The notes: generated from the sequence alone by a model not told the origin. Shown: positions 38,472-58,229, counted from the stretch's first letter. The stretch is DNA of 64,000 nucleotides from an uncultured Verrucomicrobiae bacterium (GCA_963764165.1 CAVXRD010000001.1:1499070-1563069); one strand, 5' to 3'. Numbers and translations are program-made.

Positions 38472-38497
38472 TAAGTTACCTTAAGACTTAAAGTCTT

Positions 38498-39945: not shown

Positions 39946-40455
39946 TTATTCCCTGCCCCGCAAAAAATGCTCCGCAAGCGCCACAGCATCAAAAATGTCC
40001 ATTCGGCAATCATCGCTCGTCCAAAGTTTGGGCTTTGGAGGCAAACGAGGGATCAATTCTTCCGGGAAGCGAGCGGCCAGATATTCGGCCAGGGCATGTT
40101 TTGTCCCTTGCTCATCCGCCAGAAAATCAAGGTTCATCTGCTTCCGGGAGCACTGTTTCACCTTGATCTTCCCATCCTTTGCCATAAGGACAATCTCATC
40201 AAGCAGTGCCCGTATCCGTTCCGAGCGCCGCGACCCTTTGGCCCAGGCATCTTCGATTGCGATGGCGTTTGGGTGATAAAGGGCAATCAGGTTTCCAATA
40301 TTCGAGAGGCAGCGGGCATTCTTGTCCCCACCCTTTACCGTTTTGACGCCCCAAGCAACGAGGGTGTTCTCCCCCTCCATCACGGCAAAACCGCAGCCGA
40401 AGGCAGATGGCGCAAGTCCCAAAACGCGGATATTTTTTGAAAGGTGATTTTTCAT
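39946..40455 (-). CDS. RuvC-like (RNase H fold) protein
   Basis: RVLGLAPSAFGCGFAVMEG..WG..AIAIED..TKHALA..IFDAVALA. Confidence 0.65.
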   Translation of the reverse strand: MKNHLSKNIRVLGLAPSAFGCGFAVMEGENTLVAWGVKTVKGGDKNARCLSNIGNLIALYHPNAIAIEDAWAKGSRRSERIRALLDEIVLMAKDGKIKVKQCSRKQMNLDFLADEQGTKHALAEYLAARFPEELIPRLPPKPKLWTSDDCRMDIFDAVALAEHFLRGRE

Positions 40456-40835
40456 GGGTTTTGTAATTGATTAAGAGGGCCAGTGGGCAAGATCGAAGCG
40501 AGGAATTGGCGCTTTCGGGCCGTTTGGGCTTTTGTATTGCTGCGTAAAGCCTTTTGTTCCAACAACTTGACTCGCGCCTCTAACTCAATTTGAATCTCTT
40601 TCACGAGTCCCGGAAAAAGTTCAGAAATAGGCCGCTTGTAAATCGCTTCATAGACAAGGGCAGATCGAAGGCTGGGGTCCAGAGTGAACCGTTCATGTTG
40701 GCAGACTTTGCCGCCGCCTTGAATTCCCAAGAGGAAAGCCACTTCCGTTTGGGAAAGTGCGGAGCGTTTGCGATGCGATAAAAGATGATTGGAGAGATAT
40801 TCCGAGGCCATAAAGTGTGTTTTGGTGAACCGCAC
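40452..40835 (-). CDS. XRE-type HTH regulator
   Basis: NHLLSHRKRSALSQTEVAFLLG..HE..PSL..YEAIY..LFPG; likely start ATG 40811. Confidence 0.75.
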   Translation of the reverse strand: MRFTKTHFMASEYLSNHLLSHRKRSALSQTEVAFLLGIQGGGKVCQHERFTLDPSLRSALVYEAIYKRPISELFPGLVKEIQIELEARVKLLEQKALRSNTKAQTARKRQFLASILPTGPLNQLQNP

Positions 40836-40880
40836 GGGCGAGTCCAGAATGCAACACTAATGGAAAAGAAAGGCACTCAG

Positions 40881-40910
40881 AAGACTGTGGTCTTTGCCGA
40901 AAACGGCAAA
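40881..40910 (+). promoter_or_regulatory. conserved operator-like motif, copy 1
   Basis: AAGACT-GTGGTC-TTTGCCG-AAAA-CGGCAAA. Confidence 0.7.
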
Positions 40911-41063
40911 TTCTACAAAAAACACCGGGCTTTTTAAGGCTCGGTTAGTGTCAACTATATTATGACATATATATGAATAAATAGCAAATAACCATTCGAT
41001 ATCACCGAAAACGGACAATCCTGCCGTCTATCCCCATTCAATGTGCCCGCATACAGTTGAGGA

Positions 41064-41234
41064 ATGAAAATTGAACCAGCCGCACTCCATGAATTAAAAC
41101 GGATTTGTGCCGAATCCTTCCAACGAACCCTTTCCGATACAGAGGCACAGGAGATCGGGCAGCGGATCATCCGTTTCCTTATGAATTCCGAAGCGCCCTT
41201 TCCTGCCGCTGTCCGCGATGTTGACGCGGAATAA
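41064..41234 (+). CDS. 56-aa protein immediately upstream of the recombinase
   Basis: GAGGA RBS; MKIEPAALHELKRICAESFQRTLSDTEAQEIGQRIIRFL..; shorter than any ORF in the supplied track. Confidence 0.6.
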   Translation: MKIEPAALHELKRICAESFQRTLSDTEAQEIGQRIIRFLMNSEAPFPAAVRDVDAE

Positions 41235-41265
41235 TGGTACGTTACGCTTGAACCATCCAATCCCA

Positions 41266-43131
41266 ATGACCCAATATGTAATCTACAGCCGAAAATCGCA
41301 GGAGGACGAAGGCAAACAAATTCAATCCATTCCGGCCCAGGAGGACGAAATGAAACTGGTCGCATCAAGATTGGATTTGACCGTTATCACGCCCCTGTTG
41401 AGCGAAGCCAAATCCGCCAAAGCACCTGGCCGGCCTGTTTTCAATGACATGATGGAGCGGGTTGATCGGGGCGAAATCCGAGGAATACTTTGCTGGAAGC
41501 TTGACCGGCTTGCCCGAAACCCGGTTGACGGCGGACGGATCATTTGGGCGATCAAACAGCATGGCCTGGTCATTCAGACCCCTCACCAAACATTCTCCCA
41601 AGCGGAGGATAACATGATTCTCATGTATATCGAATTCGGCATGGCCCACAAATATGTCGAAGACTTGAGCAGGAACACAACCAGAGGCTTGGAGAAAAAG
41701 GCCAAGCTGGGTTGGTATCCCGGCATCGCGCCACTCGGGTATTTGAACTCAAAAGTGGAGGAACGGGGCAATAAGACCATATTCCGCGACCCCGCCCGCT
41801 TTGATGCCGTTCGCCGAATGTGGGACCTCATGCTCACCGGGAACGCCAGTCCCACGAGGATTCAGAAGATTGCGAATGATGAATGGGGCTTTCGCACCCG
41901 GCAGACAAAGAAAACAGGTGGAAAGCCGATCTCCCGGAGCACCATCTACAGAATCTTTGCCGACCCGTTCTACTATGGCCGGTTCGAGTATCCAAGAGGC
42001 AGCGGCCTCTACTATCCCGGCCTGCATGAGCCGATGGTCACGAAGGCGGAATTTGAATGTGTGCAGAAGATTCTTCACCGGGAGATCAATCCAAGACCCC
42101 GAACAGAATTCGCTTTGCCGTTCCGGGGGGCCATCAAATGCGGGGAGTGCGGATCGTGCATAACCGCGCACTTCAAAGAGCAGGTCCGATGCACCAAGTG
42201 TCACTTCAAATCGTCGGTGAAGAACCGTGCCGCGTGTTCCAAGTGCGGTTTGGCTTTGAGTGACATGAAAGCGCCCACCATGCGCCGTTACGGTTACTAC
42301 CATTGCACCCGGACTTTGAATCCGCTCTGTCGCCAAAAATGTGTGTCGGCGAGCGCGCTTGAGAAGCAGTTGACAGAGAAATTAAAGCCATTCGGGCTTC
42401 CAGCAGAGTTGCGGGACTGGGGTTTCCAATATATCGAAAAACTGCAAGACCGGGACCTCGACGGGAAGCGGCAAATCCTTGTGGAAAGGAAAAAGGCGTT
42501 CGATCAGTGTGTCATTCGGTTGGAAAATCTGGTGAAGCTCAAAACGGCAGCGGCAAACGCTGACAACAGCCTTCTTTCCGACGAGGAATACCAGAAGCAG
42601 CGTGCCGATTTGCTTGCCCAAAAGAGCACACTGGCGACTGATACCGCCGCCTTTGAGACGGAGTTGGAGGGCAAAGTTCGACGCACCAAGGAAGCGCTAA
42701 AAGTTCTTGGAAAAATACACGACATGGCTCCCGATGCCGACGCGCTGAGAAAAAGAGAAGTTCTGACCGCATTAGGATTGAACCACGCTTTGAAGGAAAA
42801 GGAGCTAGAGATCAGGCCGGAATTTCCCTTTTCTGACCTGCCGCGTGGAGACAATCTGGAGCAGCGTGATTTGACTCCGATTGAACCAGATAATATGCAG
42901 GGCGGACAAGGCCCAAATGGTGTTTTCCGTTCTGCTTTTCCCGTTCTTGAGCGGGAACGGGACGATGATCGAACCAAATTGTTGAAGATAGCACTCGACA
43001 CAATCTGGAAGAAAATCGACCCGTCAAAGCACTTTACCAAAAAAATCCCGATTACGGAAGGAGGATCGAGCGCACCTGGCGTCCCCGATAGAGGGCATGA
43101 TACCAAAGGCACCAATAAGTCCAAGACTTGA
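41266..43131 (+). CDS. large serine recombinase (resolvase + recombinase + Zn ribbon)
   Basis: YSRKS catalytic Ser, SAKAPGRPVF, WKLDRLARN, APLGY, FADPFYYG, HEPMV, KCGECG, YYHC. Confidence 0.95.
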   Translation: MTQYVIYSRKSQEDEGKQIQSIPAQEDEMKLVASRLDLTVITPLLSEAKSAKAPGRPVFNDMMERVDRGEIRGILCWKLDRLARNPVDGGRIIWAIKQHGLVIQTPHQTFSQAEDNMILMYIEFGMAHKYVEDLSRNTTRGLEKKAKLGWYPGIAPLGYLNSKVEERGNKTIFRDPARFDAVRRMWDLMLTGNASPTRIQKIANDEWGFRTRQTKKTGGKPISRSTIYRIFADPFYYGRFEYPRGSGLYYPGLHEPMVTKAEFECVQKILHREINPRPRTEFALPFRGAIKCGECGSCITAHFKEQVRCTKCHFKSSVKNRAACSKCGLALSDMKAPTMRRYGYYHCTRTLNPLCRQKCVSASALEKQLTEKLKPFGLPAELRDWGFQYIEKLQDRDLDGKRQILVERKKAFDQCVIRLENLVKLKTAAANADNSLLSDEEYQKQRADLLAQKSTLATDTAAFETELEGKVRRTKEALKVLGKIHDMAPDADALRKREVLTALGLNHALKEKELEIRPEFPFSDLPRGDNLEQRDLTPIEPDNMQGGQGPNGVFRSAFPVLERERDDDRTKLLKIALDTIWKKIDPSKHFTKKIPITEGGSSAPGVPDRGHDTKGTNKSKT

Positions 43132-43152
43132 CAGTTTGCCGAAAACGCCAAA
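43123..43152 (+). promoter_or_regulatory. conserved operator-like motif, copy 2 (overlaps recombinase stop)
   Basis: AAGACT-TGACAG-TTTGCCG-AAAA-CGCCAAA. Confidence 0.7.
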
Positions 43153-43458
43153 TGGCCATACGTCTTGTCGAGTCTTCTACGAGACTATGCCGTGCAATGT
43201 GGCGGATAGGTGACAATACAATCATACGCCACAAAATTCAATACCGGCAGGGACTTCTCCGATAGCCAAATCAGCAAATAGCCGCCCAAATAGCATTTGC
43301 AAACTGCACAGAATGCGTTACATATCGTTGTTACAAGGACAGATCACACTAATAGCTACCGTTTTCGAACTTATTATCATATTCGATATAGGAAACTGAT
43401 TCGTCAGTCACGAAATGACTGAAGAACGGGCCTTAGATTGTCTGTCGGAAAGCACTAT

Positions 43459-43647
43459 ATGTCAGACCACAAGAAAATTGAAATAATCAAGCATGAGCAA
43501 GAGGGCGGTATACTGTCTCCAGAGAGACACCGGGCAACAAGCCAATCCGGCGACCAAGTTCGAGCAAGCGAATTCCAAAAGACCCGTGGCGCAGCCGAAC
43601 AAGAAGCGATTGAACGGCAAAGTGGGAGTCAAACTCAAAAAAAATAA
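43459..43647 (+). CDS. small hydrophilic hypothetical protein
   Basis: MSDHKKIEIIKHEQEGG..; isolated ORF in an AT-rich segment. Confidence 0.45.
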   Translation: MSDHKKIEIIKHEQEGGILSPERHRATSQSGDQVRASEFQKTRGAAEQEAIERQSGSQTQKK

Positions 43648-43752
43648 CCCACCCCCATACAGATCACACTGAGGGAGGGTGGGAGACAAATGAACTCCGA
43701 AGGGGTTCACTTACCTATGTTTTAAGACGGTGCGAGACTCAAATCATTACAC

Positions 43753-43785
43753 GGAGCGATTTACCCTGATCGCTCCCCTTTTTTT
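43753..43785 (+). terminator. intrinsic terminator
   Basis: GGAGCGAT-N8-ATCGCTCC-CC-T7. Confidence 0.75.
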
Positions 43786-43919
43786 CCTTACCGTGGGGGA
43801 CTCAGAGGACGTTAGAACCTACGGCTACAAAGCGAAACGGGCGGCCGCGCTCATATACGCTCATTTCAAAAAGGAATTCGGATTTCCAGAAGATCACTGA
43901 AATTGTCGGATTGGTATGG

Positions 43920-44060
43920 GACCAACAACAGGACACAGCTCGAATGTGGGATAACATTTTGGATCGGTTGGCAACATTGAATAGGCAAGGGTTGTTGCCC
44001 GATCTCTCGACACTGGCGGCATTTCGGCATAGAGAGGATACAACAGAGTTGAATGAATGA
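43920..44060 (+). repeat. orphan recombinase-tail-like repeat B
   Basis: GACCAACAACAGGACACAGCTCGAATGTGGGA; reads DQQQDTARMWDNILDRLATLNRQGLLPDLSTL..stop. Confidence 0.7.
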
Positions 44061-44062
44061 CG

Positions 44063-44092
44063 AAGACTCCGGATATTGCCGCAAACGGCAAA
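44063..44092 (+). promoter_or_regulatory. conserved operator-like motif, copy 3
   Basis: AAGACT-CCGGAT-ATTGCCG-CAAA-CGGCAAA. Confidence 0.7.
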
Positions 44093-44138
44093 TCCCGCAG
44101 CCTATTATCATTCCCCTATTCTTACTACCCTTATTATC

Positions 44139-44393
44139 ATGCAAAACACACAATTCATTTCAAACCGTCTTCGGGCTTGTCGCAAGGAGACTAACCTCCT
44201 GCAAGTAGATGTCGCCAAGTCCCTGGGACTCGATTGCGCTGATCGCATCTCGCGCTGGGAGAACGGCACTGCCATGCCGAATGTCATCAATCTGTTCAAA
44301 CTAGCAGCCATCTACAACGTGATGCCCCACGACTTATATCCTGAACTTCTTCAGGTCACGAAGGAACAATCGAAATCAACCGAAAATAATTAG
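44139..44393 (+). CDS. XRE-type HTH regulator
   Basis: NRLRACRKETNLLQVDVAKSLG..RISRWENGTAMPNVINLFKLA. Confidence 0.85.
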   Translation: MQNTQFISNRLRACRKETNLLQVDVAKSLGLDCADRISRWENGTAMPNVINLFKLAAIYNVMPHDLYPELLQVTKEQSKSTENN

Positions 44394-44424
44394 GCGGCAT
44401 CGATACTTATAGCTTTGCATTACA

Positions 44425-44961
44425 TTGACAGACAACGCCCTTGTGGAGCACAATGATGCGAACGACTGGCAAAAATCATTACGAACTATGGAAGAAACTC
44501 AACCTGTAATTATTCCGACTGAGGCCGCCCTGCGGGCAATGGTCGAGGCGGCTGCGCGTTTGACGATGCGAGACGAAATCGCCATATTAAAAAACGGCAA
44601 AGTCGAAAGAACCTTTTCTTCCTATTTTGCGAATAAAATCGCAGAGACAATTTGCATGGCAAATGTGCGCGCCGATCCATTTTACAACAAACATTTGGGC
44701 GCCACAAAGATACTCGACGGAAAGGTCATTGAGTTGGATATAGCCGTTCACGAGAGAAACAGCGACAAGAACAATTTGGTTGCAATAGAACTTGAAACAA
44801 CGAATCACCCAAAGAGAGATGATATTTGGAAATTGGAGAAGTTGACGCAGCAACTCTATGGCTTCGGGTATAAGCTCGGTTTTTATATTGTGTTCGGCGT
44901 AAAAAAAGAAGCTGGGAAAATCAGCATTGCAGAATGGTTCAAAAATGGCACGATCTTGTGA
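44425..44961 (+). CDS. putative PD-(D/E)XK nuclease-fold protein
   Basis: ERTFS..ADPFYNK..LDIAVHER..NLVAIELE..DDIWKL..YKLG. Confidence 0.55.
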   Translation: MTDNALVEHNDANDWQKSLRTMEETQPVIIPTEAALRAMVEAAARLTMRDEIAILKNGKVERTFSSYFANKIAETICMANVRADPFYNKHLGATKILDGKVIELDIAVHERNSDKNNLVAIELETTNHPKRDDIWKLEKLTQQLYGFGYKLGFYIVFGVKKEAGKISIAEWFKNGTIL

Positions 44962-44983
44962 TTTGTTACTTCTAACAAGTTGT

Positions 44984-45163
44984 GACCAACAACAGGACAC
45001 ACCTCGAACCTGGGACCGAATACTCAGTAAATTAACGGAACTTGCCGAAAAGGGCCTCTTGCCAGATTTGACTACCCTGTTCATAGGTGGGGGACATCAT
45101 ACCAAGAGTGCCAATGAGACCAAGACTGTGGCCTTTGCCGAAAGCAACCAAACGGAGCAATAG
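44984..45163 (+). repeat. orphan recombinase-tail-like repeat C, with partial operator motif at 45122-45151
   Basis: GACCAACAACAGGACACACCTCGAACCTGGGA (29/32 identical to B); reads DQQQDTPRTWDRILSKLTELAEKGLLPDLTTL; AAGACT-GTGGCC-TTTGCCG. Confidence 0.7.
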
Positions 45164-45937
45164 TCACCTCACGCTATCGACTGGAGGATCGAGTTTCTTT
45201 TCACCGGCATCATGCGGTTTTCGGGCACGAGGGGCGTTTTCCGTGCTTTCAAAAAGCCGTTCAGCATATGCAAAGGCGGGAATTTTCACCCATGCGGGCT
45301 TAATCGTGAAAATCCACCAATAAAGAAGCAGTGCGTTCGCTGCCGTGCAGACCCATGGAGCGATTTTTGGGTCGCCAGAATGAACAAACCAGATGCCCGC
45401 ACCACCACTCACGACGATACCAAGGAGCGTAACCATAACTCCCGTCGAGCGCAAAGCAAACAGATTTCGGCAAAACCCGTATTGGACGTTTTCCTTATGT
45501 AACAAAGGATACTTTTTAGTGTCGCGGGTTTTGCCGATTTGGAGCTTCACTGCCGCGTTATAAATATCATCCGCGCCGGAGGGATTAGAAACTTCTTCCT
45601 CTGCCGTAGGAAATGCCTTTCCCAGCAGCTTGTGAAGACTTTTGTGCCAACGTTCCCGCATAACCGGATTTGCTGGCCCTGAATGGCGGAGGAATTGTGT
45701 AGTTGGCGCACCGCCCCAAGATTGCCAAAGACCGGGTTCAATTCTTTTTCCGAAATTGCGAGCAAGTATTGCGAGGAAAAATGTGCCGCCAGCCGTTGAA
45801 AAAAGCGTCCAGAGAGCCGACTGCCATTTGACGCCGGGACCCGTCCATGCGAACACACCAATTGCAGCAGGTAGCAAGGTCAAAAGCGCCGGTTGAACCC
45901 GCGCCCGCAAGCTGTAATAGTCAAACAAATTAGTCAT
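45164..45937 (-). CDS. multi-TM hypothetical protein (putative defence effector)
   Basis: FDYYSLRARVQPALL..WGGAPTTQFLR..ENVQYGFCRNL; overlaps the end of the MBL gene. Confidence 0.6.
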   Translation of the reverse strand: MTNLFDYYSLRARVQPALLTLLPAAIGVFAWTGPGVKWQSALWTLFSTAGGTFFLAILARNFGKRIEPGLWQSWGGAPTTQFLRHSGPANPVMRERWHKSLHKLLGKAFPTAEEEVSNPSGADDIYNAAVKLQIGKTRDTKKYPLLHKENVQYGFCRNLFALRSTGVMVTLLGIVVSGGAGIWFVHSGDPKIAPWVCTAANALLLYWWIFTIKPAWVKIPAFAYAERLFESTENAPRARKPHDAGEKKLDPPVDSVR

Positions 45938-47027
45938 CGTTTTCTACTTGGGTATAAAATTGTATTGGTTCGATTGACCCGTATGTGCTTCTGGCAGGTG
46001 CTTGATCGCGCAGCCAAATATTGATCCCGGCTGTGGCGTGGACGGATGCTCCACGGCGGCGGAGGGCGTTGGTCACCTTTTTGTGGGGATGTTTCGGCGC
46101 GCCATCTTTTGCTGCGGAGATATAAGCATACCAATCTTTTGCATCCAGTCCTCGGACGCCTCCAAATAGACGATTGAGCACTGAGGGGCCGAGATTCCGA
46201 CGGCTTCCGTGGTGTGGCACATCGAAGAAATATAGTCCCGCGAGCGAAATCCCGTTTGCGTCTACAAATGCAATCGCCGCCTGTAGCGCGGGAACGCCTG
46301 CATCGCCTGTGAACAGGAACTTCTTGTCATCCACATCAAGGGTGAAAATCACGGATGAATTATTCTCGGAACTTGTCGCGTCTGGAGCAGGCTCTTGGAG
46401 CTTTTCCGTGAACCAATTCTCCGAGACCCAATTCGCAACCGTGGCTCCCAACGCCCTGAGTGCCTCCCCAAGACGTGCAGAAGTAGTTTGGATTTCAGTT
46501 CCTGGCATAAATCTGAATCCCGCGAGCATTTCTTGGTAAAAATCTTTTGTCGGCCCAATGACGCGTAGTCCAAGCCCGCTTGCACCGGCAAAAGGCTCGA
46601 TAACGGGGATCCCCTTTTCCTTCGCGAGCTGTTCAATCTCTCGCACAGTGGAGAGATTCCGTTTGGCATTTTCCCGTATCGAATCGGTCGTCACGCGACC
46701 GTCATCCAAGAATTCTTTGACATCGCTTGAATGATTCCAAGGCAAGTGCATCGCCAATTGTTTCACTTTCAGCCCCTCCAAGATGTTGCGCATTCCCGAT
46801 GCGTGATCCGTATCGGCATGCGACAATATTGCAATGTCCACTGTGTCGGTCCCATAATACGTTTTGACATGCTTCACCAGTGCATCGCCGGATTCCAATG
46901 TTCCACCGTCGATTGTGACGACGGTCTGCTCATTGCGTTGACCAAAGAGGTTGCCGTAGCGCAGACATACCGCATGTGCGCTTCGCTCACCATCGCCCGC
47001 CGCTAAATAATCGATTTCGTATCCCAT
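45930..47027 (-). CDS. ComEC/Rec2-like metallo-beta-lactamase-fold hydrolase
   Basis: IDGG, SHADTDHASG, NNSS, FTGDAG, VPHHGS, KHP. Confidence 0.85.
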   Translation of the reverse strand: MGYEIDYLAAGDGERSAHAVCLRYGNLFGQRNEQTVVTIDGGTLESGDALVKHVKTYYGTDTVDIAILSHADTDHASGMRNILEGLKVKQLAMHLPWNHSSDVKEFLDDGRVTTDSIRENAKRNLSTVREIEQLAKEKGIPVIEPFAGASGLGLRVIGPTKDFYQEMLAGFRFMPGTEIQTTSARLGEALRALGATVANWVSENWFTEKLQEPAPDATSSENNSSVIFTLDVDDKKFLFTGDAGVPALQAAIAFVDANGISLAGLYFFDVPHHGSRRNLGPSVLNRLFGGVRGLDAKDWYAYISAAKDGAPKHPHKKVTNALRRRGASVHATAGINIWLRDQAPARSTYGSIEPIQFYTQVENDD

Positions 47028-47063
47028 ATTGACTTTATATATGTTATATCATAACATGCACTC

Positions 47064-49550
47064 ATGCAAAATGCAATAAAAATCGATGAGCGCCTCCGTT
47101 TACTTCGTTCAAAGTTGAACCTGAGCCAAGAACAATTGGCGTCACGTCTAAATATCTCATTTGCAACGGTTAATCGCTGGGAAAGCGGCAAGGTGAAGCC
47201 GCAAAAGGCTCAACTTGACTCACTCGATAAACTCATGGGGGAAGCTGGCATTCAGGATGGAGATAAGGGCAATGTTGCGGAGGGTGATGGAGCTTCTGCG
47301 CAGCAGCCCCGCCGTCGTCGAGGGGTTGCAAAAAGCGCCGTGCTCGGAAACCGGGGCATGGAGCAGATGCTTTGGGACGCGGCATGCTCGATACGCGGCG
47401 AAAAGGACGCGCCGAAATTCAAAGATTATTTGCTCCCGCTGCTTTTCATCAAACGCCTGTCGGACGTTTTCGACGACGAAACGCAACGGCTCGCCGATCA
47501 GTTTGGCGACCGCGCCACCGCCCTTGAAGTCCTGGAAGACGATCACAAACTGGTCCGCTTTTACATCCCGCCCGAGGCACGCTGGCCGGTGGTGAGCGGA
47601 CGCGAGGCGTTCAAATGGCCAAAGGACAAAACGCCGAAGGGTCTTGGCGAACAACTCACCACGACCATTCGCGGCATCGTGAAACACAATCCGTCGCTCG
47701 CGGGCGTGATTGATATTGTGGATTTCAACGAAACCCGAAACGGCGAGCGCGAGATTAGCGACTCCGCGTTAAAGGGTATCATCGAAACTTTCTCTGACGC
47801 CCGCTACCGGCTTGGCTTGCACGACGTAGAACCTGATTTTCTCGGACGCTGTTACGAATACCTTTTACGGAAGTTCGCCGAAGGCCAGGGGCAAAGCGCC
47901 GGAGAGTTTTTCACACCCACCGAAGTCGGCTTTCTAATCGCCGAAATAATGCGGCCACGACCCGGCGAGGAATGTTACGACTACGCTTGCGGCTCGTTTG
48001 GTCTGCTTGTCAAATTGCAAATCATCTGTCGCCGCCTCGATCCCCTTTCAAAAGTCCCGCTTAAGCTTTATGGCCAAGAACGAGAGGCATCTAGTTATGC
48101 CATCGCTTGTATGAACAGAATAATTCATGATATGGAGGGCCAAGTGGCGCGCGGTGACTCTATGCGCAATCCCAAATTCAAAGACAGCGATACCCGGCTG
48201 AAACAGTTTGATATTGTGGTCGCAAATCCCATGTGGAACCAATCGTTTGATGCCGACGTTTTCGAAAACGACCCTTTTGAACGCTTCGAGGAGCAAGGCG
48301 GTGTCACCACCACCAAGGGTGATTGGGCTTGGTTACAACACACGCTCGCGGCGTTGAAAAATGCGGGGCGAGCAGCCGTCGTCATGGATACAGGGGCAGT
48401 CACGCGCGGAAGCGGCAGTAAGAACGAGGACAAGGAGCGCAACATACGCAAATGGTTTGTGGACCACGACCTGATTGATGGCGTTATACTATTACCGGAC
48501 AACCTCTTTTATAACATGAATGCGGCAGGGGTGATAATTATATTGCGTAAGCAAAAGCCAAAAGAACGAAAAGGCCGCATTTTTCTCGTGGATGCAAGCA
48601 GCCAGCGCCAGAAAGGCAATCCCAAAAACTTCATTCCAGAATCAAGCATCAAAACGATTGCAACAGCTTTTCATAAAGGAGAGGCAGTGGATGGATTTCT
48701 TTCAGTGATCACAAATCAGGAAGCATCCAACAATGACTACAATCTTCATCCTTCACGCTTTTGCTCTACGACTGCAAAGAACACACACCATAGCGCAGAT
48801 GCACTTAGAAAGGAGTTAGATGCCCTTGAACTTGAGGCGACTTCAATTGAAAAAGGTTTAGCCAGAATCTTGAGTAAATTTAACGTTTCGATGGATATCG
48901 ATGAAGCTCCCTTGCCAGATGATTGGCAGTCTTCTGTGCTCGAAACATTTTATCGCATCACAAAGAAGCCGAAGGGCCTTGCTCTGGACGGAATCGACAC
49001 AATTCCGTTTATTCCAATGGAATTGGTTCCTGCCAAGGGGACTCATAAAACTCCATTTAATCTCAAAAAACGAAAGGATATCACGAGCGGCACATACTTT
49101 GAAAAAGGTGACGTTTTGCTCTCGAAAATCACGCCTTCCTTTGAAAATGGAAAACAAGGCATAGCCGATGAAATTCCGAGTGCTTTCGGCTACGCGACCA
49201 CCGAAGTGATACCCATTCACTCACTACCCAATGTGAGCAACAAGTATTTTCTGTTCTATTGGCTCTTACAGCAATCGGCGCGCTCTTGGCTTGAGGCTAG
49301 AATGGAAGGAAGCACCGGGCGGCAACGTGTTCAGGAACATTCAGTTAAGGAGATTCCATTCAGTAAACCTCCTTTTGAGGAAGAAAAGAAGATTGCCGCC
49401 GTGCTAAGAAAAATTCAGCGCATGATTGAAATTAGAGAACGACAGACTTTTCTTCTGCGAGAGCTGTTCAAGGGTTCATTGAATATCCTCATGACTGGTC
49501 GCGTGCGGATAAACGATCTCGACATTGATACAAAGGATATCGAGTCATGA
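47064..49550 (+). CDS. hsdM: type I RM fusion: XRE-HTH + HsdM methyltransferase + single HsdS TRD
   Basis: N-term [21 protein letters not shown]; [39 protein letters not shown]; C-term [33 protein letters not shown]. Confidence 0.9.
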
Positions 49551-52468
49551 GCACATTACTCGCAAACGAGGCCAGCACGGTTCAGTTTCCGCTCGTAAAG
49601 CACGCGGCGGAAATCGGCTGGACTGTCATATCAGACGCCGAGGCACTTCGTCGGCGCGGCGGCGAAGCCGGTTTGTTTTTCGACAAAGAACTTGAAGACG
49701 CCTTGCTCCGCCTTAATCCCGACATCATCACGGCGGAGAACGTGCAGTCTGTCATTCAACGCATGGAGAGCGTGCCGAACACCATTGAGGGCAACCGCGA
49801 AATTCTCGAATGGTTGCGCGGCAACAAAACGGTGTTCGTCGAAAGCGAGAAAAGGCATCGCAACGTTACGCTTTTAGATGTCAAAAACATTGACCGTAAT
49901 GTTTTTCAAGTCACCTACGAATGGACATTCCGTGCGTTGAACAAAAAAGGCAATCGTGCGGACGTGATGTTTCTTATCAACGGAGTTCCAGTTGCCATAG
50001 TGGAAAATAAAAACCCAAAATTGCCGGATGCGACCGAACGCGCCATCAAACAACTTCGCCGCTACCAACTGGAAACGCCGGAATTGCTCACCATGTCCCA
50101 AGTGTTCAACGTGACGCACTTGATCGAATACCTTTACGGCGTCACTTGGAATTATTCGCGCAAGGGCATCTTTGAATGGAAAACCAAGCGCGAAGAAACT
50201 TTCCGCAGCGCGGTTCAAGGATTCTTTGACCGGGGCATCTTTCTGAAAATGCTTGGCGAATGGATTTTATTTTTTCTCAAAGACGATGAATTGCAGAAAA
50301 CTGTTTTGCGCCAGCACCAGACGCGCGCCGCTGAAAAAGTTGTGGAGCGCTGTGCCGACCCGAAAAAGAAAACTGGCCTTGTCTGGCATACACAAGGTTC
50401 AGGAAAAACTTTTACGCTCATCACGGCGGCACGGCTCATTTTGGAAGACAAGGAACGCTTCCCCGGCGCGACGGTGATGCTTGTGGTTGACCGCAACGAA
50501 TTGGAAGGCCAGTTGTCAGGCTGGGTCGAGCGACTTGTTGGTGAGGTTCACGGACGCGACATCAAAATTAAATACGCCGACAGCCGCGCAAGGTTGCAGG
50601 AATTGTTAGATCAAGATTTTCGCGGCCTTATCATTTCGATGATTCACAAGTTTGACGAAATCCGAAAGGATTCATGCAAGCGTTCAGACTTTTTTGTGCT
50701 GATAGACGAAGCGCACCGTTCGACTAGCGGTGATCTTGGCAATTTCCTAATGGGCGCATTACCGAACGCGACGCTGATCGGTTTTACCGGCACGCCGATT
50801 GATAGAACGGCCCACGGCAAAGGCACATTTAAAGTTTTCGGCAAGGAGGACGACAAGGGTTATCTCGACAAGTATTCCATCCGAGAATCCATTGCAGACG
50901 GAACGACAGTTATGTTGCGTCACACGTTGGCGCGAAGTGAAATTCAGCTTCCCGAAGATTTGCTCGAAAAGGAATTCTTGAACATCGTCGAGAGCGAAGG
51001 CGTCAGCGACGTGAACGAATTGAACCGCATCCTTGACCGTGCGGTAAATTTGAAAGCGTTTTTGAAAGCCGACGACCGCGTAGAGAAAGTGGCACAATTC
51101 GTCGCAAAACACTTCAAGGAAAACGTCGAGCCGCTGGGCTACAAAGCATTCCTTGTAGCAGTGGATCGTGAAGCGTGCGCCCTTTACAAAAAGGCACTCG
51201 ACAAGTATCTACCCCGAGAATACTCGATACCGATTTATACGAAGAATGCAGCGGACTCCATTGACCGCCCTCTTGTGGCACAAATGCAGTTGGACGAAAC
51301 CGCCGAGAAGAAAGCCCGCAAAGCGTTTCCGAAGCCCGACCAATTGCCGAAAATTTTCATCGTCACCGACAAACTTCTCACCGGCTACGACGCGCCCGTT
51401 TTGTATTGTATGTATCTCGACAAGCCAATGCGCGATCACGTCTTACTTCAAGCCGTGGCGCGTGTGAACCGGCCTTACGAGGACGACAAAGGTGTTAAAA
51501 AGCCGTGCGGCCTCATCGTTGATTTCATCGGTATCTTGAAAGAATTGAACAAGGCGCTGGCGTTTGATTCTGACGAAGTGAGGGGTGTAATTGAAGACCT
51601 CGACATTTTGCTCGCTCGTTTCAAAGAGTTGATGGAAGCCGCTGGCAAATCATACTTGGAAGCCGCTGGCACAAACGGCGGAAGGGACGTGAAGATCGAG
51701 AAACTGCTTTACGATATTTTCCTAGACAAGCAGAAGCGGCAGGAGTTCGTCGAGTTTTTCAAGGAGGTTGAAATGCTTTACGAAATCCTTTCGCCTGATT
51801 CCGCGTTGCGTGATTACATAGAAAATTACAATAGGCTCGCTGACCTTTACGTCATGCTGAAAAACGCCTATGGCAAGAAAACGACGTTTTACGCAGACAT
51901 CGCCCACAAAACTGAAATGCTTGTCCGCGAAAATGCCGCATCTCACGGTCTCGCCAAGATGACCAAGACGGTGGAATTTGACGCAGCGGCATTGCAGGCG
52001 TTGAAAGATAAAAAGGGTTCAGACAACGGCAAGGTAATCAATCTCATAAAAAGCCTCACTAAAAGTGCAACCGACCGAGGCGAGAAAGAGCCATATCTCA
52101 TTTCGATTGCCGAGCGCGCCGAGTCTGTAATGGGTGCGTTGGAAGATCGTCAGGTTTCCACGGCAGACGCGCTTTCGAGAATCGAAGGATTGATGCGGGA
52201 AAAACTGGCGGCTGAAAAAGTCCGTAAGGAAAGTGGGCTTGACCCCGACACGTTTGAGATTTTTTGGTTTTTGCAGCAGCAAGATGTCAAAGACGCTCTC
52301 CTTATTGCAAAGGAAATCAATGCGGTATATTCGCGCTTCCCCAATTCCGCCAGCAATGCGGACGAGCAGCGACAATTGAAAGCCGAGATTTACAAATCAT
52401 TGCTCCGCGTCGTCAGCGGCAAGCGCATGGTTGATCTTGCGGAAGAGATTTTACGTCTTAAACAATAA
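49547..52468 (+). CDS. hsdR: type I restriction endonuclease subunit R
   Basis: [52 protein letters not shown]. Confidence 0.95.
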
Positions 52469-52815
52469 TGAAATCACGACACCAAAACGCTGTGCCGTTG
52501 GATCAACCTTTCAAAACAAAGGTGCATTCATGGGCATTGAGAGTTCGTGTGAAGCCGACGCAAGTCCGCATTCAGAAAATGACTCGCAAATGGGCGTCAT
52601 GTTCGACTCGCGGATGGATCAGCTTTTCATACGACCTTTTGCTTGAGCCGCAACCCTTTCAAGATTATGTGGTCGTTCACGAACTGCTTCACTTGAAAGT
52701 CCGCAATCATGGCAAGCTTTTCAAAAGTTTGCTTTCAGCATATCTACCAGGTTGGAAAAAATTTAGCCTTGAATGTCGCGCTACAAGACCAGTAGGTTCA
52801 GGAGCGGTGAAATAA
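52468..52815 (+). CDS. short YgjP/M48-like metallopeptidase-domain protein
   Basis: MTRKWASCS..DYVVVHELLHL..NHGKLF; usual neighbour of hsdR. Confidence 0.8.
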   Translation: MKSRHQNAVPLDQPFKTKVHSWALRVRVKPTQVRIQKMTRKWASCSTRGWISFSYDLLLEPQPFQDYVVVHELLHLKVRNHGKLFKSLLSAYLPGWKKFSLECRATRPVGSGAVK

Positions 52816-52832
52816 ACTCACCAAACAAAATC

Positions 52833-55520
52833 ATGCCAATTACCTTTAATGAAATTGATGTGGTAGATAACGGCGCTCAGTTTTCCAATGCCGATCTGCA
52901 CGTTCACTCCTTCGGCGCTTCCCACGATGTCAAAGATTCCGCGATGACTGTGGAAGCCATCATTGATGAAGCCGTAAAAATTGGCATTCAAATTTTGGCT
53001 ATCACCGACCACAACACAGATGCAAACACGCAGAAGAGCATTGATTATGCGCAAAAATATACTGGCCAGATTCTCGTGCTGCCCGGTGTTGAAATTACGA
53101 CCGCACATGGCCATCTTCTTGTTTATTTTTCCCCGATTAAAGCCGCGAATGTCCGTAATTTATTAGCAAAGATAAATGTTGTCGGCAACCTCGGCGATCA
53201 AAACAGTCACACTGCCATGTCCATGGCTGATGTGATCAAAGAAGCTGAGCTTTTGGGCGGCATCTGTGTCGCCGCGCACATCGATAGAGTAAAAACTGGC
53301 TTTGAAATGCAGATTCAAGGTTATCCCAATTGGAAGAAAGACATCATGCTGAGTCCTGGGCTTTACGGCTTGGAATTCGATATCCCGACAAATCTTGGTT
53401 GGTATTCAGATACGGACGAGCCGACCACAAACGGCACGGAACGGAAGCAAATCGCCCGGACCAGGGCAAATGTGCCGCAAATCATGGGGCGTCCCCACTT
53501 GGCTCGCATTCAAGGGTCTGACGCACATACGCTCAAGATTTTCACCACAGGTCGAAGTGGCAAAATTCTTACGCGATTTAAACTCACCGAGCTAAATTAC
53601 GACGCGTTTAGAACCGCTCTATCTGACCCGGAAGCTCGCGTCCGGGCCGTGGCAACAATTCCACGCACATTGCCTCGCATTCTAGGAATGAAGATAGCCG
53701 GGGGGTTTCTGAATGGAGAAACCTACCATTTTAGTGATAATTTGAACTGCTTCATCGGCGGCCGTGGAACCGGAAAATCTTCTGCGCTCCAAACGCTTGC
53801 GCACGGCCTGGGGCTTAACGACGAAATGAATACGCACGATAACTGCCCTGGGTCCGTAGTTGTATATTGTGAAGACACGAATGGAATCCGTTATCGGTAT
53901 GAACGAATGCAGGGATCAAAGCCCGTTGTAAGGGCAAAAAATGACCTAGATATTAACGATGTTCCGATTGATGCTTTTCGAGTTGAATATTATCAGCAAG
54001 GTGAGTTGGCGGAAGTTGCAAAAAACCCTCTTAAAAACCCAGGCTTGCTTCAACAATTTTTGGACAGACACCTATTATTATCTGATCTCCTCGGCAAAGA
54101 GGAACAGTTGGTCACAGCCCTTGAACAAAACAGTGCGCAGCTTATTCCACTTGAGGTCAGCGCCGGCCAACTCACTGGGAAAAAACAGATTCTCGCAGAT
54201 ATAAACAAGAAATTGTCTATCGCAGAGGCCGGAAAATTGAAGGACATAGCGGCCGAACAAAGTTGTCTGGCCAATGAAAAGAATTTTGCAATATCACTCG
54301 AACAAATCGGAAATGAGTATGCGCGCGGTTTAACCCTTTCAAATTTTGCCCGCGATTATGGAACAATCGAGGCCACCGTTGCCCCGCTGACAAATTCGCC
54401 CGCCTGTAACGCCACACTCCTCAAAATTAAGAATGCAATCGAAGTGGTGAACACATTCTTAGATGAAAAGGAAAAGGATATTAAGGCAAAATTTAACAGT
54501 GCATCAAAAGAGATTACGGCTGCATTGGCCGAGTTGAAACAGATCCATAGCCAGCTGGAAACACAATTGAACGTCAAAATAAAAGAACTCCAGCAAAAAG
54601 GTCTGTCAGGAAGTATTACCGAGCTACAGAATTTTCTCACCCAAAAGGGTGCAGTAACGCTCGAAATCAATAAAATCAACACCCAGGCACCACAGTTGAA
54701 ACAGTTGAGGCAGGATAGACAGCAATATTTGACCGATCTCGAAAATCTCCGGGAGGAAATTATGAAACGGAGAAAAGGACAGCTAAATTCGATCAATCAA
54801 AATCTCGCCGCGACCATTGAGGATTACACGGTCTTCGTGCATTACGAGCCGAGTGGAATAATCGACGCGTTCAAGAAGTTTATTCTCGAGAAGATGCAAG
54901 GAACGTATTTTCAAGAAGACGCAGCAGAACAATTTTGTTCCCATATTACGCCACCAGCACTTGCAAAATTTGTGCTCGATGAGAACTTTACTGAAATTAG
55001 TAATGTTACCGGCGTCACCAAAGAATGGGCGGGACAGATTTGCAAAAAGCTCCGATTTTATCAACAACTTCACGCGTTGGAAGTTATGTGGAAAACGCCA
55101 TGTCCCATTATTTCTGTGAAAACGAAAGGCGCGAAGCCGAAAAGTATCCCGGTTAATCAACTTTCGGACGGCCAGAAACACACCATTATGCTGACCATCG
55201 CCATGCTGGCAGAATCAAACATTCCATTGGTGATTGATCAACCGGAAGATGATTTGGATAATGCTTTTATTTTTTCGGCCGTTGTCAAAGCACTCCGTTC
55301 GATTAAGGAGCGAAGGCAGGTCATACTCGTTACACACAATGCTAACATAGCTGTTTTGGGGGACGCCGAATTACTTTTGCCAATGCGACGAAACGGTGAT
55401 GGAGGAACCGCCTTCGATCTTGGTTCAATTGATAAAACCGAAACAAAAAAGACAGTTTTGAATATTCTTGAAGGTGGAGATTTAGCCTTCCGGCGCAGAC
55501 GTGAAATTTACGGTTACTAA
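52833..55520 (+). CDS. PHP phosphoesterase + SMC-like ABC ATPase (Ppl-like anti-phage protein)
   Basis: ADLHVHS, AITDHN, PGVEI, AAHID, GSDAH; GGRGTGKS; coiled coil; LSDGQK, IDQPEDDLDN, VTHNAN. Confidence 0.85.
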   Translation: MPITFNEIDVVDNGAQFSNADLHVHSFGASHDVKDSAMTVEAIIDEAVKIGIQILAITDHNTDANTQKSIDYAQKYTGQILVLPGVEITTAHGHLLVYFSPIKAANVRNLLAKINVVGNLGDQNSHTAMSMADVIKEAELLGGICVAAHIDRVKTGFEMQIQGYPNWKKDIMLSPGLYGLEFDIPTNLGWYSDTDEPTTNGTERKQIARTRANVPQIMGRPHLARIQGSDAHTLKIFTTGRSGKILTRFKLTELNYDAFRTALSDPEARVRAVATIPRTLPRILGMKIAGGFLNGETYHFSDNLNCFIGGRGTGKSSALQTLAHGLGLNDEMNTHDNCPGSVVVYCEDTNGIRYRYERMQGSKPVVRAKNDLDINDVPIDAFRVEYYQQGELAEVAKNPLKNPGLLQQFLDRHLLLSDLLGKEEQLVTALEQNSAQLIPLEVSAGQLTGKKQILADINKKLSIAEAGKLKDIAAEQSCLANEKNFAISLEQIGNEYARGLTLSNFARDYGTIEATVAPLTNSPACNATLLKIKNAIEVVNTFLDEKEKDIKAKFNSASKEITAALAELKQIHSQLETQLNVKIKELQQKGLSGSITELQNFLTQKGAVTLEINKINTQAPQLKQLRQDRQQYLTDLENLREEIMKRRKGQLNSINQNLAATIEDYTVFVHYEPSGIIDAFKKFILEKMQGTYFQEDAAEQFCSHITPPALAKFVLDENFTEISNVTGVTKEWAGQICKKLRFYQQLHALEVMWKTPCPIISVKTKGAKPKSIPVNQLSDGQKHTIMLTIAMLAESNIPLVIDQPEDDLDNAFIFSAVVKALRSIKERRQVILVTHNANIAVLGDAELLLPMRRNGDGGTAFDLGSIDKTETKKTVLNILEGGDLAFRRRREIYGY

Positions 55521-55672
55521 TGTTTGTTTTCACTTGATCCGATTTTCCGCTATCGCTCCCAACGTGTTTGTGACATGCCTGTCCCCCCACATCACGGGCT
55601 ACATACATGGTATGTAGGGGCTGACGCCCATCACTATTGAATTGCACGGCTTAACCGCCGCACCAACTAGCT

Positions 55673-55796
55673 CCCCAACGTGTCGTCGGCCAGGCCGACT
55701 GTTTGCTTTTTCCCTGCGGGCTTCGGGATAACGGACATCTAACCGCTGTCCTTTACCAAAAATCAAACAGTCGGTCTAACCGCCGACACGTTGGGG
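55673..55796. repeat. 39-bp imperfect inverted repeat (124-bp hairpin)
   Basis: 55673-55711 versus reverse complement of 55758-55796: 34/39 identical. Confidence 0.85.
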
Positions 55797-56050
55797 CACT
55801 GGTTTTTGGAAAAGGGGTTATCACCCCGACGACCGGTCCGTTATCACGCAGCGTTCACGCATGAAGCGTGGAGGACGACGGGTTGACTGCCATCACAAGT
55901 TCGTTCGTGATGCCACGACCGACGACCGTCCGGAGAAAAAGCGCTGCCGCGCCGCAGGCGCGACCGATTTTCCCGTTGAGCACGAATTTGCCGATTTCGC
56001 CAAATCCAGCAGTCTTTGATCGAATCCCCGTTCCGGTAATCTTGACGCAT

Positions 56051-56284
56051 ATGAAAAACACAAACAAAGAGGAAGCAAATGTGCCCGGTGCGTCAGAAGC
56101 GAGCCATGAAAAGAAGGCCGACATTACGAAACTGCCCCGCATGGAAATGTATGCCGTTTTGGGCTTGGAATTAAGTCAGAAGATTTTCGAAAAATTGATC
56201 GAAGTTGAGGAATCAGTTGAGATTTTGGCGCGCCAGAAGGCGCGGGAGTTGCATACCGAGCAGCCGGAAGCCACAGGCAGATAG
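56051..56284 (+). CDS. small hypothetical protein
   Basis: MKNTNKEEAN..; lies between two long inverted repeats. Confidence 0.5.
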   Translation: MKNTNKEEANVPGASEASHEKKADITKLPRMEMYAVLGLELSQKIFEKLIEVEESVEILARQKARELHTEQPEATGR

Positions 56285-56292
56285 CCCATTCG

Positions 56293-56445
56293 GGTTCCAA
56301 AACCAGCCGCCATTACCCCGCCTACTCGCACCAAAAGCGGTTGTCGGCGTTTGCGTGCGGTCATACCCCGCACTCATGCCGCAACTAACTTTCAAACGAC
56401 ACGGGGAAGTTCGGTCCGGCGGGAGTGGCGGCTGGTTTTGGAACC
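56293..56445. repeat. perfect 20-bp inverted repeat abutting the ATPase start codon
   Basis: GGTTCCAAAACCAGCCGCCA (56293-56312) and TGGCGGCTGGTTTTGGAACC (56426-56445). Confidence 0.9.
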
Positions 56446-57729
56446 ATGAATCTAAATACCCCCATCGTGATCGGTGAGCGTGACGGCTGGGGTGACTCAC
56501 ACCCTTTCGGCATTTCGGCTGGGGATCATTGCCACCATATATATATTATTGGCAAAACCGGCTCAGGCAAAACAACATTGCTCCGCAACTTGCTTATTCA
56601 GCATATTGCACTTGGTCATGGGGTCGCGTTGATTGATCCCCACGGCGATCTTGCCGAGGAATTGTTGAATCACATACCACCTGATCGAACCGACCATCTG
56701 GTATATTTCAATCCAGGTGATCTTGAATTTCCCGTTGGCCTGAATTTGCTGGCGAACGTGGAGCAGGACGACCGTCATCTTGTCGCATCTGGGATTGTCG
56801 GCGCTTTCAAAAACATCTGGCGTGATTCATGGGGTCCGCGCATGGAATATATTTTTTACAATGCCGTGGCCGCGCTGTTGGATTGTCCCAACACGACCCT
56901 TTTGGGCGTAAACCGGATGCTCACCGACGAAACATATAGGGCATGGGTCATCCGGCAGATCAAAGACCCGTTCATCAAGGCATTTTGGTCGGAGGAATTT
57001 GCAAGCTATGACCCGCGCTTTCAGCGCGAAGCCATCGCCCCGATCCAGAACAAGCTGGGCCAGTTTCTTTTGAATCCAGTCATCAGAAACATTTTGGGCC
57101 AGGTCAAAACAAAAGTGAGCATTCCGTTTACGATGGATCATGGACGCATTTTCATTGCCAATCTCTCCAAAGGCCGCCTGGGCCATGACAAGGCGAACCT
57201 GCTTGGTTCCCTCTTGACCACGCAATTCCAGTTGGCGGCAATGGCCCGCGCCAAAATCCCAGAATCCCAACGGCGTCCTTTTTTCCTTTATATCGACGAA
57301 TTTCAAAACTTCTCTACCGACGCCTTCGCATCCATTTTGGCCGAAGCCCGCAAATATCGACTCTGTCTGACAATCTCCCACCAATACATTGACCAACTCA
57401 CGCTGCCGGTCCGCCAAGCGGTGTTTGGGAACGTGGGCACCCTGATTTCCTTCCGTGTCGGATATGCGGACGCGGAGGTCTTGGAAAAGGAATTTGGCAA
57501 TGCTTTTCCCCCAAGTGCTCTTGCCGACCTTGGGCGTTATGAGGCAGTTGTGAAATTGCTTGAGAACGGAGCAAACCGGGAACCGTTTCGGGCGAAAACC
57601 GTTGCTCCACTAGAAAACCGAATGGGCCGAAAAGACAAACTCATCGCCCGGTCACGGGAGCGGTTTGCAACTCTGCGAATCAGTATCGAAGAAAAGTTGA
57701 ATCGCTGGATCGAAACGCATTCCTTTTGA
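56446..57729 (+). CDS. type IV coupling-protein-like (TraD/VirD4/HerA-family) ATPase
   Basis: HIYIIGKTGSGKTTLL, IDPHGDL, WGPRME, LYIDEFQNF, EARKYRL..HQY, FGNVGT. Confidence 0.85.
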   Translation: MNLNTPIVIGERDGWGDSHPFGISAGDHCHHIYIIGKTGSGKTTLLRNLLIQHIALGHGVALIDPHGDLAEELLNHIPPDRTDHLVYFNPGDLEFPVGLNLLANVEQDDRHLVASGIVGAFKNIWRDSWGPRMEYIFYNAVAALLDCPNTTLLGVNRMLTDETYRAWVIRQIKDPFIKAFWSEEFASYDPRFQREAIAPIQNKLGQFLLNPVIRNILGQVKTKVSIPFTMDHGRIFIANLSKGRLGHDKANLLGSLLTTQFQLAAMARAKIPESQRRPFFLYIDEFQNFSTDAFASILAEARKYRLCLTISHQYIDQLTLPVRQAVFGNVGTLISFRVGYADAEVLEKEFGNAFPPSALADLGRYEAVVKLLENGANREPFRAKTVAPLENRMGRKDKLIARSRERFATLRISIEEKLNRWIETHSF

Positions 57730-57736
57730 AGGCCGG

Positions 57737-58189: not shown

Positions 58190-58229
58190 CGCCCCATGCT
58201 AGCACGCGTGAAAGAAGGCAGCAACGAGG

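Follow-up and report, generated by a model that had tools for sequence, protein, structure and literature searches.

The attP site of myxophage Mx8 lies inside the gene for its integrase, IntP; the phage integrates at a tRNA gene region, whereupon the integrase gene acquires a new 3' end and is not destroyed (PMC6070905). Both the Mx8 and the SSV integrases reach across attP (PMC4383910). The "suicidal" SSV-type integrases of archaea likewise have the site in their own gene, use tRNA genes as targets, and are associated with "gene capture"; the review that covers them describes self-disrupting recombinases as known only from archaea (PMC8371274). For the serine family, a 2014 database paper says that no integrase is known to have a tRNA gene as its target (PMC4383910). 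The locus described here comes from an uncultured Verrucomicrobiae bacterium and lies within a 64,000-nt stretch of its DNA, referred to below as the window (GCA_963764165.1, CAVXRD010000001.1:1499070-1563069; one strand, positions counted from its first letter). It consists of a gene for a large serine recombinase (LSR; 41218..43131, plus strand), followed on the same strand by three reading frames that lack start codons. These frames are probably stranded 3' ends of LSR genes, an attachment (att) site in the end of the LSR gene having taken up successive tail-swapping units.

The LSR family to which this protein belongs resembles Mx8 IntP in having the att core within the integrase open reading frame (ORF). 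The LSR 3' end is complete in 74 related loci, and in 30 of them the ORF overlaps a tRNA gene on the opposite strand, at the LSR stop codon. As in Mx8 and SSV, integration appears to alter the C-terminus and to leave the native end at the other junction, a feature seen only in relatives of the locus (with far-junction tails in L027 and L071). The differences are also clear. Mx8 encodes a phage tyrosine recombinase, whereas the enzyme here is a serine recombinase, and the available part of PMC6070905 does not mention orphan tails arrayed with cargo downstream of an intact int gene. The archaeal tyrosine integrase gene of the SSV type is split into two large inactive parts, whereas the LSR exchanges only its last 35-65 codons. 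Finally, phiC31, Bxb1, and A118/LI integrases have the same domain architecture as this LSR, but attP sites of the phiC31/Bxb1/A118 type are intergenic and the one considered here is inside the recombinase gene.

All three start-less frames match the C-termini of full-length LSRs elsewhere, representing two further LSR subfamilies, and these matches uphold the view, put forward in an earlier note on this DNA, that the frames are orphan recombinase 3' tails. Orphan tail 1 (43793..43900, plus strand; VGDSEDVRTYGYKAKRAAALIYAHFKKEFGFPEDH), which includes its own att core, shows 84, 81, 80, and 75% amino acid identity to the C-termini of complete LSRs in the related loci L028, L061, L036, and L040, respectively, and the 12 residues on its 5' side are unrelated to LSR sequence; described earlier as the weakest match, it is instead the best-supported tail. 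Orphan tails 2 (43917..44060, plus strand) and 3 (44981..45163, plus strand) are both of the type termed DQ, which closes the 523-aa LSR of a genome from the same family (L017; CPPQRDRPRTCGEILGLIIALNKQGKLPDLATA). The DQ type was also found in 19 metagenome loci, several of them identical sequences from different samples, where it ends 12 complete LSR frames (479-488 aa) and 3 frames cut by the start of the contig, stands on truncated remnants (44 or 83 codons) in 3 loci, and forms a bare orphan in 1. A HMMER search of 1.84 billion representatives with tail 3 gave 20 matches with E<=1e-3 (1 self match, 9 short true relatives, and 10 multi-stretch matches), with no complete LSR among them; LSR sequence was present upstream of 3 of the 9 short relatives and absent from the other 6, and both of the multi-stretch matches that were inspected (2 of the 10) proved to be PPR-like repeat proteins.

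The att cores of tails 2 and 3 (43917-43951 and 44981-45015) make up a direct repeat with 89% identity over 35 nt at a spacing of 1,064 nt. A recount from position 43920 gives 29 identical nucleotides out of 32, as claimed before, and the two peptides share 64% identity across a stretch of 33 aa (E = 6e-14). The orphan tails match tails of other subfamilies, at 60-84% amino acid identity, and not the resident LSR tail, to which tail 3 is linked by just a weak BLASTP match (E = 0.038). The resident LSR tail is collinear with the consensus of its own subfamily (ERxxDEDRTKxLKxALExIWKKLDP...), so there is no sign that it was swapped in. All three orphan frames are still open as far as a stop codon that adjoins the palindrome discussed below. 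With the tails as boundaries, the array falls into units at 42949-43792, 43793-43916, 43917-44980, and 44981 to ~55580. A separate arrangement was noted in locus L112 (1403-5390): 2 kb downstream of an LSR of the DQ type stands an orphan of the other type, with 81% identity to the tail of L028, and behind this orphan comes a palindromic site. Mixing of tail types thus goes both ways.

A comparison of the tails with six-frame fragments of the window and of 90 related loci (91 sources) identified 13 tail fragments without an LSR body in 9 of these sources: 3 in the window, 2 each in L024 and L025, and single ones in L027, L029, L050, L054, L056, and L057. Each of the 13 has the same strand as the LSR and begins no more than 6 codons from the R-T codon pair, after unrelated sequence. 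The junction can also be seen in the sister elements L024 and L054. They are 90% identical from the end of a RuvC-like gene to ~5 codons before the D-R-T codons of the LSR; past that breakpoint, L024 has a different tail and a 732-bp segment with a palindromic site and an XRE-like ORF, and after this segment come an L054-type tail (91% identity) and whatever follows it in L054. The two sisters thus differ here by one insertion or deletion, and the pair displays what the earlier note had envisaged, a unit that supplies a new C-terminus with the old one displaced downstream. A second breakpoint between them falls ~44 nt into a DQ-type orphan common to both, to the right of which they carry different defence systems.

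The homology breakpoints lie at the D-x-x-R-T codons, 130-180 nt upstream of the AAGACT-N6-TTTGCCG palindrome, and neither boundary of the L024/L054 difference is at an AAGACT/TTTGCCG site. The proposal that the att site is inside the recombinase 3' end is thus in agreement with the common breakpoint, whereas the palindrome as the site itself is not. On these alignments, the placement of the attachment site within the LSR 3' coding end, at the D-x-x-R-T codons, appears to hold. In the resident gene, the predicted core (att0; 42949..42990, plus strand) reads GGGAC-GATGA-TCGAACC, its likely extent being based on a codon-level comparison with tRNA-fused and native relatives and on the equivalent position of the L024/L054 breakpoints. 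It covers the codons E-R-E-R-D-D-D-R-T (42949-42975), which are followed by KLLKIALDTIWKK; the protein ends in LERERDDDRTKLLKIALDTIWKKIDPSKHF...KSKT. The same-genus genomes G001-G004 lack this LSR and have almost no DNA in common with positions 32.5-63 kb of the window.

The relatives also indicate what the core resembles. The tRNAs overlapped in the 30 loci are those for Gln, Asn, Lys, Trp, Ile, Ser, Leu, Arg, and Asp; the tRNA-fused LSRs end in ...LGDLDSNQ..., a tRNA read backwards, whereas the native ones end in ...LGDLDDVRT and a helix. L027, fused to a tRNA-Gln gene, and L028, with a native tail, share 15 identical nucleotides (CTGGGGGACTTGGAC), after which L027 continues with TCGAACCAAAAT (TCGAACC...) and L028 with GATGT-TCGAACC-TACGGG. 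It follows from this comparison that R-T (CGAACC) is the T-loop GGTTCG in antisense, and that L-G-D-L-D is the acceptor and T-stem in antisense. The heptamer comes directly after GGA[CT] in 7 of 7 tRNA-fused genes; in 12 of 12 native genes compared, and in the orphans compared, another 5 nt stand between them. In the element-type half-site, the heptamer is therefore 5 bp more distant from the presumed centre than in the tRNA-type one. Attachment sites attP and attB of the LI integrase differ in a half-site, and the 5-bp offset of the heptamer may be an analogous feature. Each orphan likewise opens with a 15- to 20-nt arm that resembles the tRNA 3' end and its LSR mimic (e.g., GTGGGGGACTCAGAG versus CTGGGGGACTTGGAC).

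In L027 and L071, a native-type tail with the 5-nt spacer is found 5-7 kb upstream of the tRNA-fused LSR. These two tails look as far junctions should, and both would put the crossover to the left of the spacer. A 24-nt probe for copies of the tRNA 3' end found none upstream of 26 tRNA-fused LSRs, and a 15-nt probe (<=3 mismatches) found 9 matches, against a chance expectation estimated at ~3.6; the match at position 4854 of L071 is the only one that continues with N5, TCGCACC, and D-A-R-T. ARAGORN detected no tRNA gene in the window or within -40/+60 kb of it, and the LSR site is therefore unsplit here and the array anchored on the LSR gene itself. The locus has no intact tRNA gene at one end, such as marks a tRNA-island array, and does have a displaced 3' fragment of the target at each junction, in direct orientation.

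These observations can be accommodated by the following scheme. Members of the LSR family would bear the attachment site, a reverse-read copy of the 3' end of a tRNA, within the last 35-65 codons of their own gene, and recombination there would exchange everything downstream of the site. Upon integration into a tRNA gene, the LSR body would be kept and would read into the tRNA, the native tail being left at the far junction. In the window, by contrast with such loci, the intact LSR gene of a conjugative element would have served as the docking point for serial insertions of units built as [att core - tail - palindromic site - cargo]. An incoming tail would join the LSR body, and the previous tail, with an intact two-armed site, would move downstream together with its cargo. 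Such events could have produced the present order, i.e., the LSR body with tail R and a small ORF, tail 1, DQ tail 2 with genes for a helix-turn-helix (HTH) protein and a 178-aa protein, DQ tail 3 with defence genes, and the transfer backbone. The direction and sequence of the insertions are inferred; the LSR itself would presumably catalyze them, with a crossover probably just to the left of the 5-nt spacer, and may still be active. Recombination between any two cores would excise the intervening units and rejoin the LSR to an older tail.

The AAGACT-N6-TTTGCCG motif had been reported at the end of the real tail and of both DQ tails, and it is indeed present at all three, exactly at 43123 and 45122 and with one mismatch at 44063, but a fourth, exact copy at 40881, upstream of the LSR, had been overlooked. 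With up to 2 mismatches, there are 13 matches in the window against 1.92 expected, a number reached in 0 of 100 shuffles; a 30-nt form (<=5 substitutions) has 7 matches in the 7.0-Mb genome, all of them in the window (40881+, 43123+, 44063+, 45122+, 55987-, 58767+, and 59743-). Site A (AAGACT-N6-TTTGCCG-AAAA-CGGCAAA; 40879..40911, plus strand) is located in the divergent promoter region of the XRE and LSR genes, where a degenerate inverted copy, recognized by eye only, lies at ~41008-41036. Site B (43121..43153, plus strand) overlaps the LSR stop codon, site C (44061..44093, plus strand) is 46 nt upstream of the HTH gene, and site D (45120..45152, plus strand) is degenerate, with a position weight matrix score of 17; sites E (55986, minus strand), F (58765, plus strand), and G (59742, minus strand) are in the transfer backbone. 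Copies precede the genes for the HTH protein (44061), relaxase (58765), and primase (59742), the last of these being kept in L024. The consensus across loci is AAGRNG-N7-TTGCCG-N4-CGGCAA. Related loci have one copy 420-480 bp upstream of the LSR, an inverted one 110-145 bp further on, and a third at or just after the LSR stop (within ~10 nt in the window and in L030, L032, L034, L036, L038, and L057), and locus-specific variants, such as TTGCCA..TGGCAA in L035 and L040, are common to all sites of a locus. Because it abuts the stop codon of the tail, the palindrome travels with each tail. It is unlike the att core, and in most of the tRNA-fused loci from other phyla no copy was found. Two other roles were considered and rejected: as the start of a small ORF (Shine-Dalgarno sequence plus TTG), it would be followed by peptides that are not conserved after M-P-K/Q-T, and as a terminator, it has a stem of just 6-7 bp and a T-run only in some copies.

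If this palindrome (with its -N4-CGGCAAA extension) were the recombination site, the cassettes would be the A-B, B-C, and C-D segments. Such a reading could draw on the four direct copies (40881, 43123, 44063, and 45122), unique to the locus in the 7-Mb genome, on their dyad symmetry and the central AA common to all four, on its placement in many relatives, where it coincides with the LSR stop or comes just after it, and on the loss of homology at the site in the pairs L030/L034 and L036/L038. It is nevertheless highly improbable, as the palindrome is missing from both boundaries of the L024/L054 insertion (L054 has none in 9729-14808), the orphans begin 130-180 nt upstream, where a different core is conserved, tail 1 lacks the palindrome, and the L029/L050 homology continues ~250 nt beyond it. 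Cassette boundaries would also be senseless at the inverted pair in the XRE/LSR promoter and before the relaxase and primase genes. The chances appear evenly balanced that the palindrome is, rather than a recombination site, the operator of the linked XRE regulator; it may also have an accessory role in recombination. Another reading treats the tails purely as decay products of tandem whole elements that had their own LSRs and later lost their bodies, with no LSR-less cassettes and no ongoing capture. Tandem accretion followed by decay to cis-mobilizable remnants has been documented for other elements (PMC5704250, in the part available), three LSR subfamilies are what three passing elements would leave, the tails are old (64% amino acid identity between the DQ tails), and partly deleted LSRs with 44-83 codons remaining do occur in 3 metagenome loci. 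This course of events is still unlikely: random deletion would not be expected to give 13 of 13 orphans a start within the same few nucleotides and to strip all of them of the LSR body, tandems with regenerated tRNA genes would put the orphans at the far ends of elements and not 0.1-1 kb apart behind an intact LSR, and the 732-bp unit of L024 and the 124-bp tail 1 unit are far too small for decayed elements with chance ends. Hardly any weight can be given to local duplication or gene conversion of the LSR 3' end, or to chance, without site-specific recombination: the direct repeats are short (35 nt, 89%) and tail 3 barely resembles the resident LSR in BLASTP, as this would allow, but the orphans are closest to tails of other subfamilies and the arrangement recurs in 8 unrelated loci.

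Stranding of tails through repeated use of the site in the LSR gene, although it remains the preferred explanation, has several observations weighing against it. Far-junction tails were seen in only 2 of the 26 tRNA-fused loci searched (within 10 kb). The orphan tails come from three LSR subfamilies that are only 24-47% identical, so that one resident enzyme must act on rather different sites or other enzymes acted, and no LSR of the DQ type or tail 1 type is present in this genome now. All sites of the array carry the right half of the attP (element) type, and textbook LSRs are not known to recombine attP with attP. The LSR need not be active, because a second LSR explains the integration of the island in comM; the array is old, judging from the DQ tails being only 64% identical; and the 44-83 codons of LSR body that remain on the tails in 3 metagenome loci imply that plain decay also occurs. 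No recombination product was seen: the only public run found with part of the window (peat metagenome contigs, in which 8% of sampled words matched and contigs were mapped at 80% identity) covers 45134-45452 with two 151-nt contigs that span no joints, and is uninformative on circles and deletions. No RNA run containing the DNA was found.

Staphylococcal cassette chromosome (SCC) elements are moved by Ccr large serine recombinases and are inserted at the 3' end of rlmH. Accretion of SCC elements and of integrative and conjugative, integrative mobilizable, and cis-mobilizable elements (ICE, IME, and CIME, respectively) differs from the arrangement seen here in that the duplicated target end is the recombinase gene itself, a mimic of a tRNA 3' end, and that units are as small as 124 bp. 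In streptococci, tandem accretion has given rise to cis-mobilizable remnants (PMC5704250, in the part available). The array shares with integrons an insertion point next to the recombinase, the newest unit being nearest to it, and a stack of promoter-less or small cargo that includes defence genes. However, there is no IntI tyrosine recombinase, attI, or folded attC here, the insertion point is within the recombinase ORF, and every unit has to bring a coding tail. What stands at the junctions is a tRNA-like core in a coding tail, and the only recurrent palindrome (6-4-6) lies off the junctions. The term "integron-like" used in the earlier note therefore holds as an analogy only.

The resident LSR comprises 637 aa (621 aa if counted from the Met codon at 41266). 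It matches the Pfam families Resolvase (E = 1.2e-18, residues 21-165) and Recombinase (E = 5.3e-09; 36.7 bits against a cutoff of 21.1), with Zn_ribbon_recom at 18.9 bits, under the cutoff of 25.3. In an alignment of 23 sequences, R9 and S11 are invariant, as expected of a resolvase-type catalytic domain, and the Cys columns C292, C295, C309, C312, C324, and C327 are kept in the LSR. More than 3,000 homologs were detected at E<=1e-10, in Verrucomicrobiota, many Patescibacteria, and other phyla; the likeness to the NCBIfam CcrA/B/C models is only distant (E = 1e-11 to 1e-14, far under the cutoff). The LSR gene is part of a conserved module with the order RuvC-like (minus), XRE (minus), 56-aa ORF (plus), and LSR (plus). 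At its left end, the gene for the RuvC-like protein of 169 aa (39946..40455, minus strand), which has no Pfam match and a weak NCBIfam RuvC match (E = 0.005), adjoins the LSR in 25 related loci by tblastn. The same searches found the XRE-type HTH regulator gene (40452..40835, minus strand), divergent from the LSR, beside it in 30 loci; this protein has no Pfam match, its HTH being read from the sequence and from its likeness to the HTH protein encoded at 44139. The conserved 56-aa ORF (41064..41234, plus strand) just 5' of the LSR keeps its position in 21 loci by tblastn and had no family match in PADLOC or NCBIfam scans. Immediately left of the module, positions 33423-39553 code for HTH, MobB/AAA-like, radical SAM, deoxynucleoside-kinase-like, and GHMP-kinase-like proteins and two NUDIX proteins, a cluster that might make up a defence system or one for nucleotide or DNA modification.

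Cargo in the first units of the array is modest. The first carries a 69-aa ORF (43438..43647, plus strand) without a family match, and the terminator that had been reported after this ORF is present at 43753-43776 with a T-run to 43785. The unit that begins with tail 2 encodes an HTH_3 regulator (44139..44393, plus strand; Pfam HTH_3, E = 8.1e-09) and a 178-aa protein (44425..44961, plus strand), for which the nuclease fold named in the earlier note would be putative, with no match in Pfam or NCBIfam and a borderline PADLOC match to PD-Lambda-3_A (E = 7e-4). Behind tail 3 lies a block of defence cargo (45164..55520) that consists of transmembrane and metallo-beta-lactamase (MBL) proteins, a type I restriction-modification (RM) system (an HTH-HsdM-HsdS fusion and HsdR), and a Ppl-like PHP-ATPase; the PADLOC matches are PDC-M48B (2.1e-86), MTase_I (5e-149), REase_I (6e-90), and Ppl (2e-35). 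At 45164-47027 (minus strand), the MBL-fold protein matches the candidate defence family PDC-M48B from end to end, and neither PADLOC nor Pfam nor NCBIfam has a match for its membrane partner of 257 aa. In the type I RM methylase (47064-49550), an N-terminal HTH_3 domain, HsdM, and one HsdS half-domain are joined in one protein of 828 aa. To the right of their common breakpoint, L024 encodes GajA (Gabija) and CBASS with a patatin effector, and L054 encodes PDC-S06 and, further on, CBASS with a TIR-STING effector, so that the variable, defence-rich cargo noticed beside the tails is a feature of the window and of two sister elements.

The right edge of the variable region (~55590) is a conserved hairpin block that is not att-like. 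From there on, the backbone has ~70% nucleotide identity to L024 and L054; its start (55584..60905, plus strand) includes the hairpin block and the genes for a type IV coupling protein (56425-57729), Replic_Relax (58841-59752), and primase (59853-60905). The backbone encodes a TrwB-type coupling protein (7e-11), Replic_Relax (4e-19), a DnaG-type primase, a methyltransferase, and an ArdC-RadC protein. The last of these is a 436-aa fusion of an ArdC N-terminal domain, a zincin peptidase, and RadC-JAB (62325-63635). The block at 55590-55720, which opens the backbone common to L024 and L054, contains the inverted repeat CTACATACA(G/T)GGTATGTAG and may be an origin of transfer (oriT) or a regulatory hairpin. 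The LSR and the array are within an insertion of ~59 kb by which comM/yifB is split. Its 3' part, for the C-terminal third of the protein, is at 15267-15839 (minus strand; TIGR00368 positions 348-499, E = 7e-45), and its 5' part, together with a second LSR (500 aa) that reads into it, lies 9.5-12 kb past the right end of the window (G000:C1:1572575-1575050, L003). With a predicted relaxase, coupling protein, and integrase inside the inserted island, the element has the make-up of the ICE/IME type. Elsewhere in the window, positions 23959-28171 encode a Ser/Thr kinase-WD40 protein and an ECF sigma factor that have dozens of copies with 68-80% DNA identity in same-genus genomes and therefore belong to a large paralogous family.

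A full-text literature search (without supplements) retrieved no description of a serine integrase that spans its own site and none of orphan-tail arrays. Site-spanning integrases have so far come from one myxophage and from archaeal viruses, all being tyrosine recombinases, whereas this family of serine integrases appears to do both, spanning its own site and targeting tRNA genes. For genome engineering, it would offer naturally occurring LSRs that target tRNA genes and have a C-terminal module that can be detached. A start-less D-x-R-T tail could serve as a simple sequence mark of past insertion that delimits cargo to the nucleotide in uncultured genomes, and the tail array marks the place where sister elements differ in anti-phage systems, namely, Gabija and CBASS in L024, PDC-S06 and CBASS in L054, and, in the window, a PDC-M48-like pair together with type I RM and Ppl. 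More tentatively, and short of what we would regard as the likelier outcome, the locus could be a capture platform whose docking site, in the coding end of the recombinase, mimics a tRNA; the cassettes would bring C-termini, the orphans would be spare ends able to restore the enzyme, and tails would be interchanged among three subfamilies. Since each captured cassette must bring a replacement C-terminus, the tail of the enzyme would change with each capture or loss, and a swapped tail may tune its activity or direction, as reported for Mx8 Int. Such a platform would stock the conjugative elements of Verrucomicrobiota with anti-phage systems.

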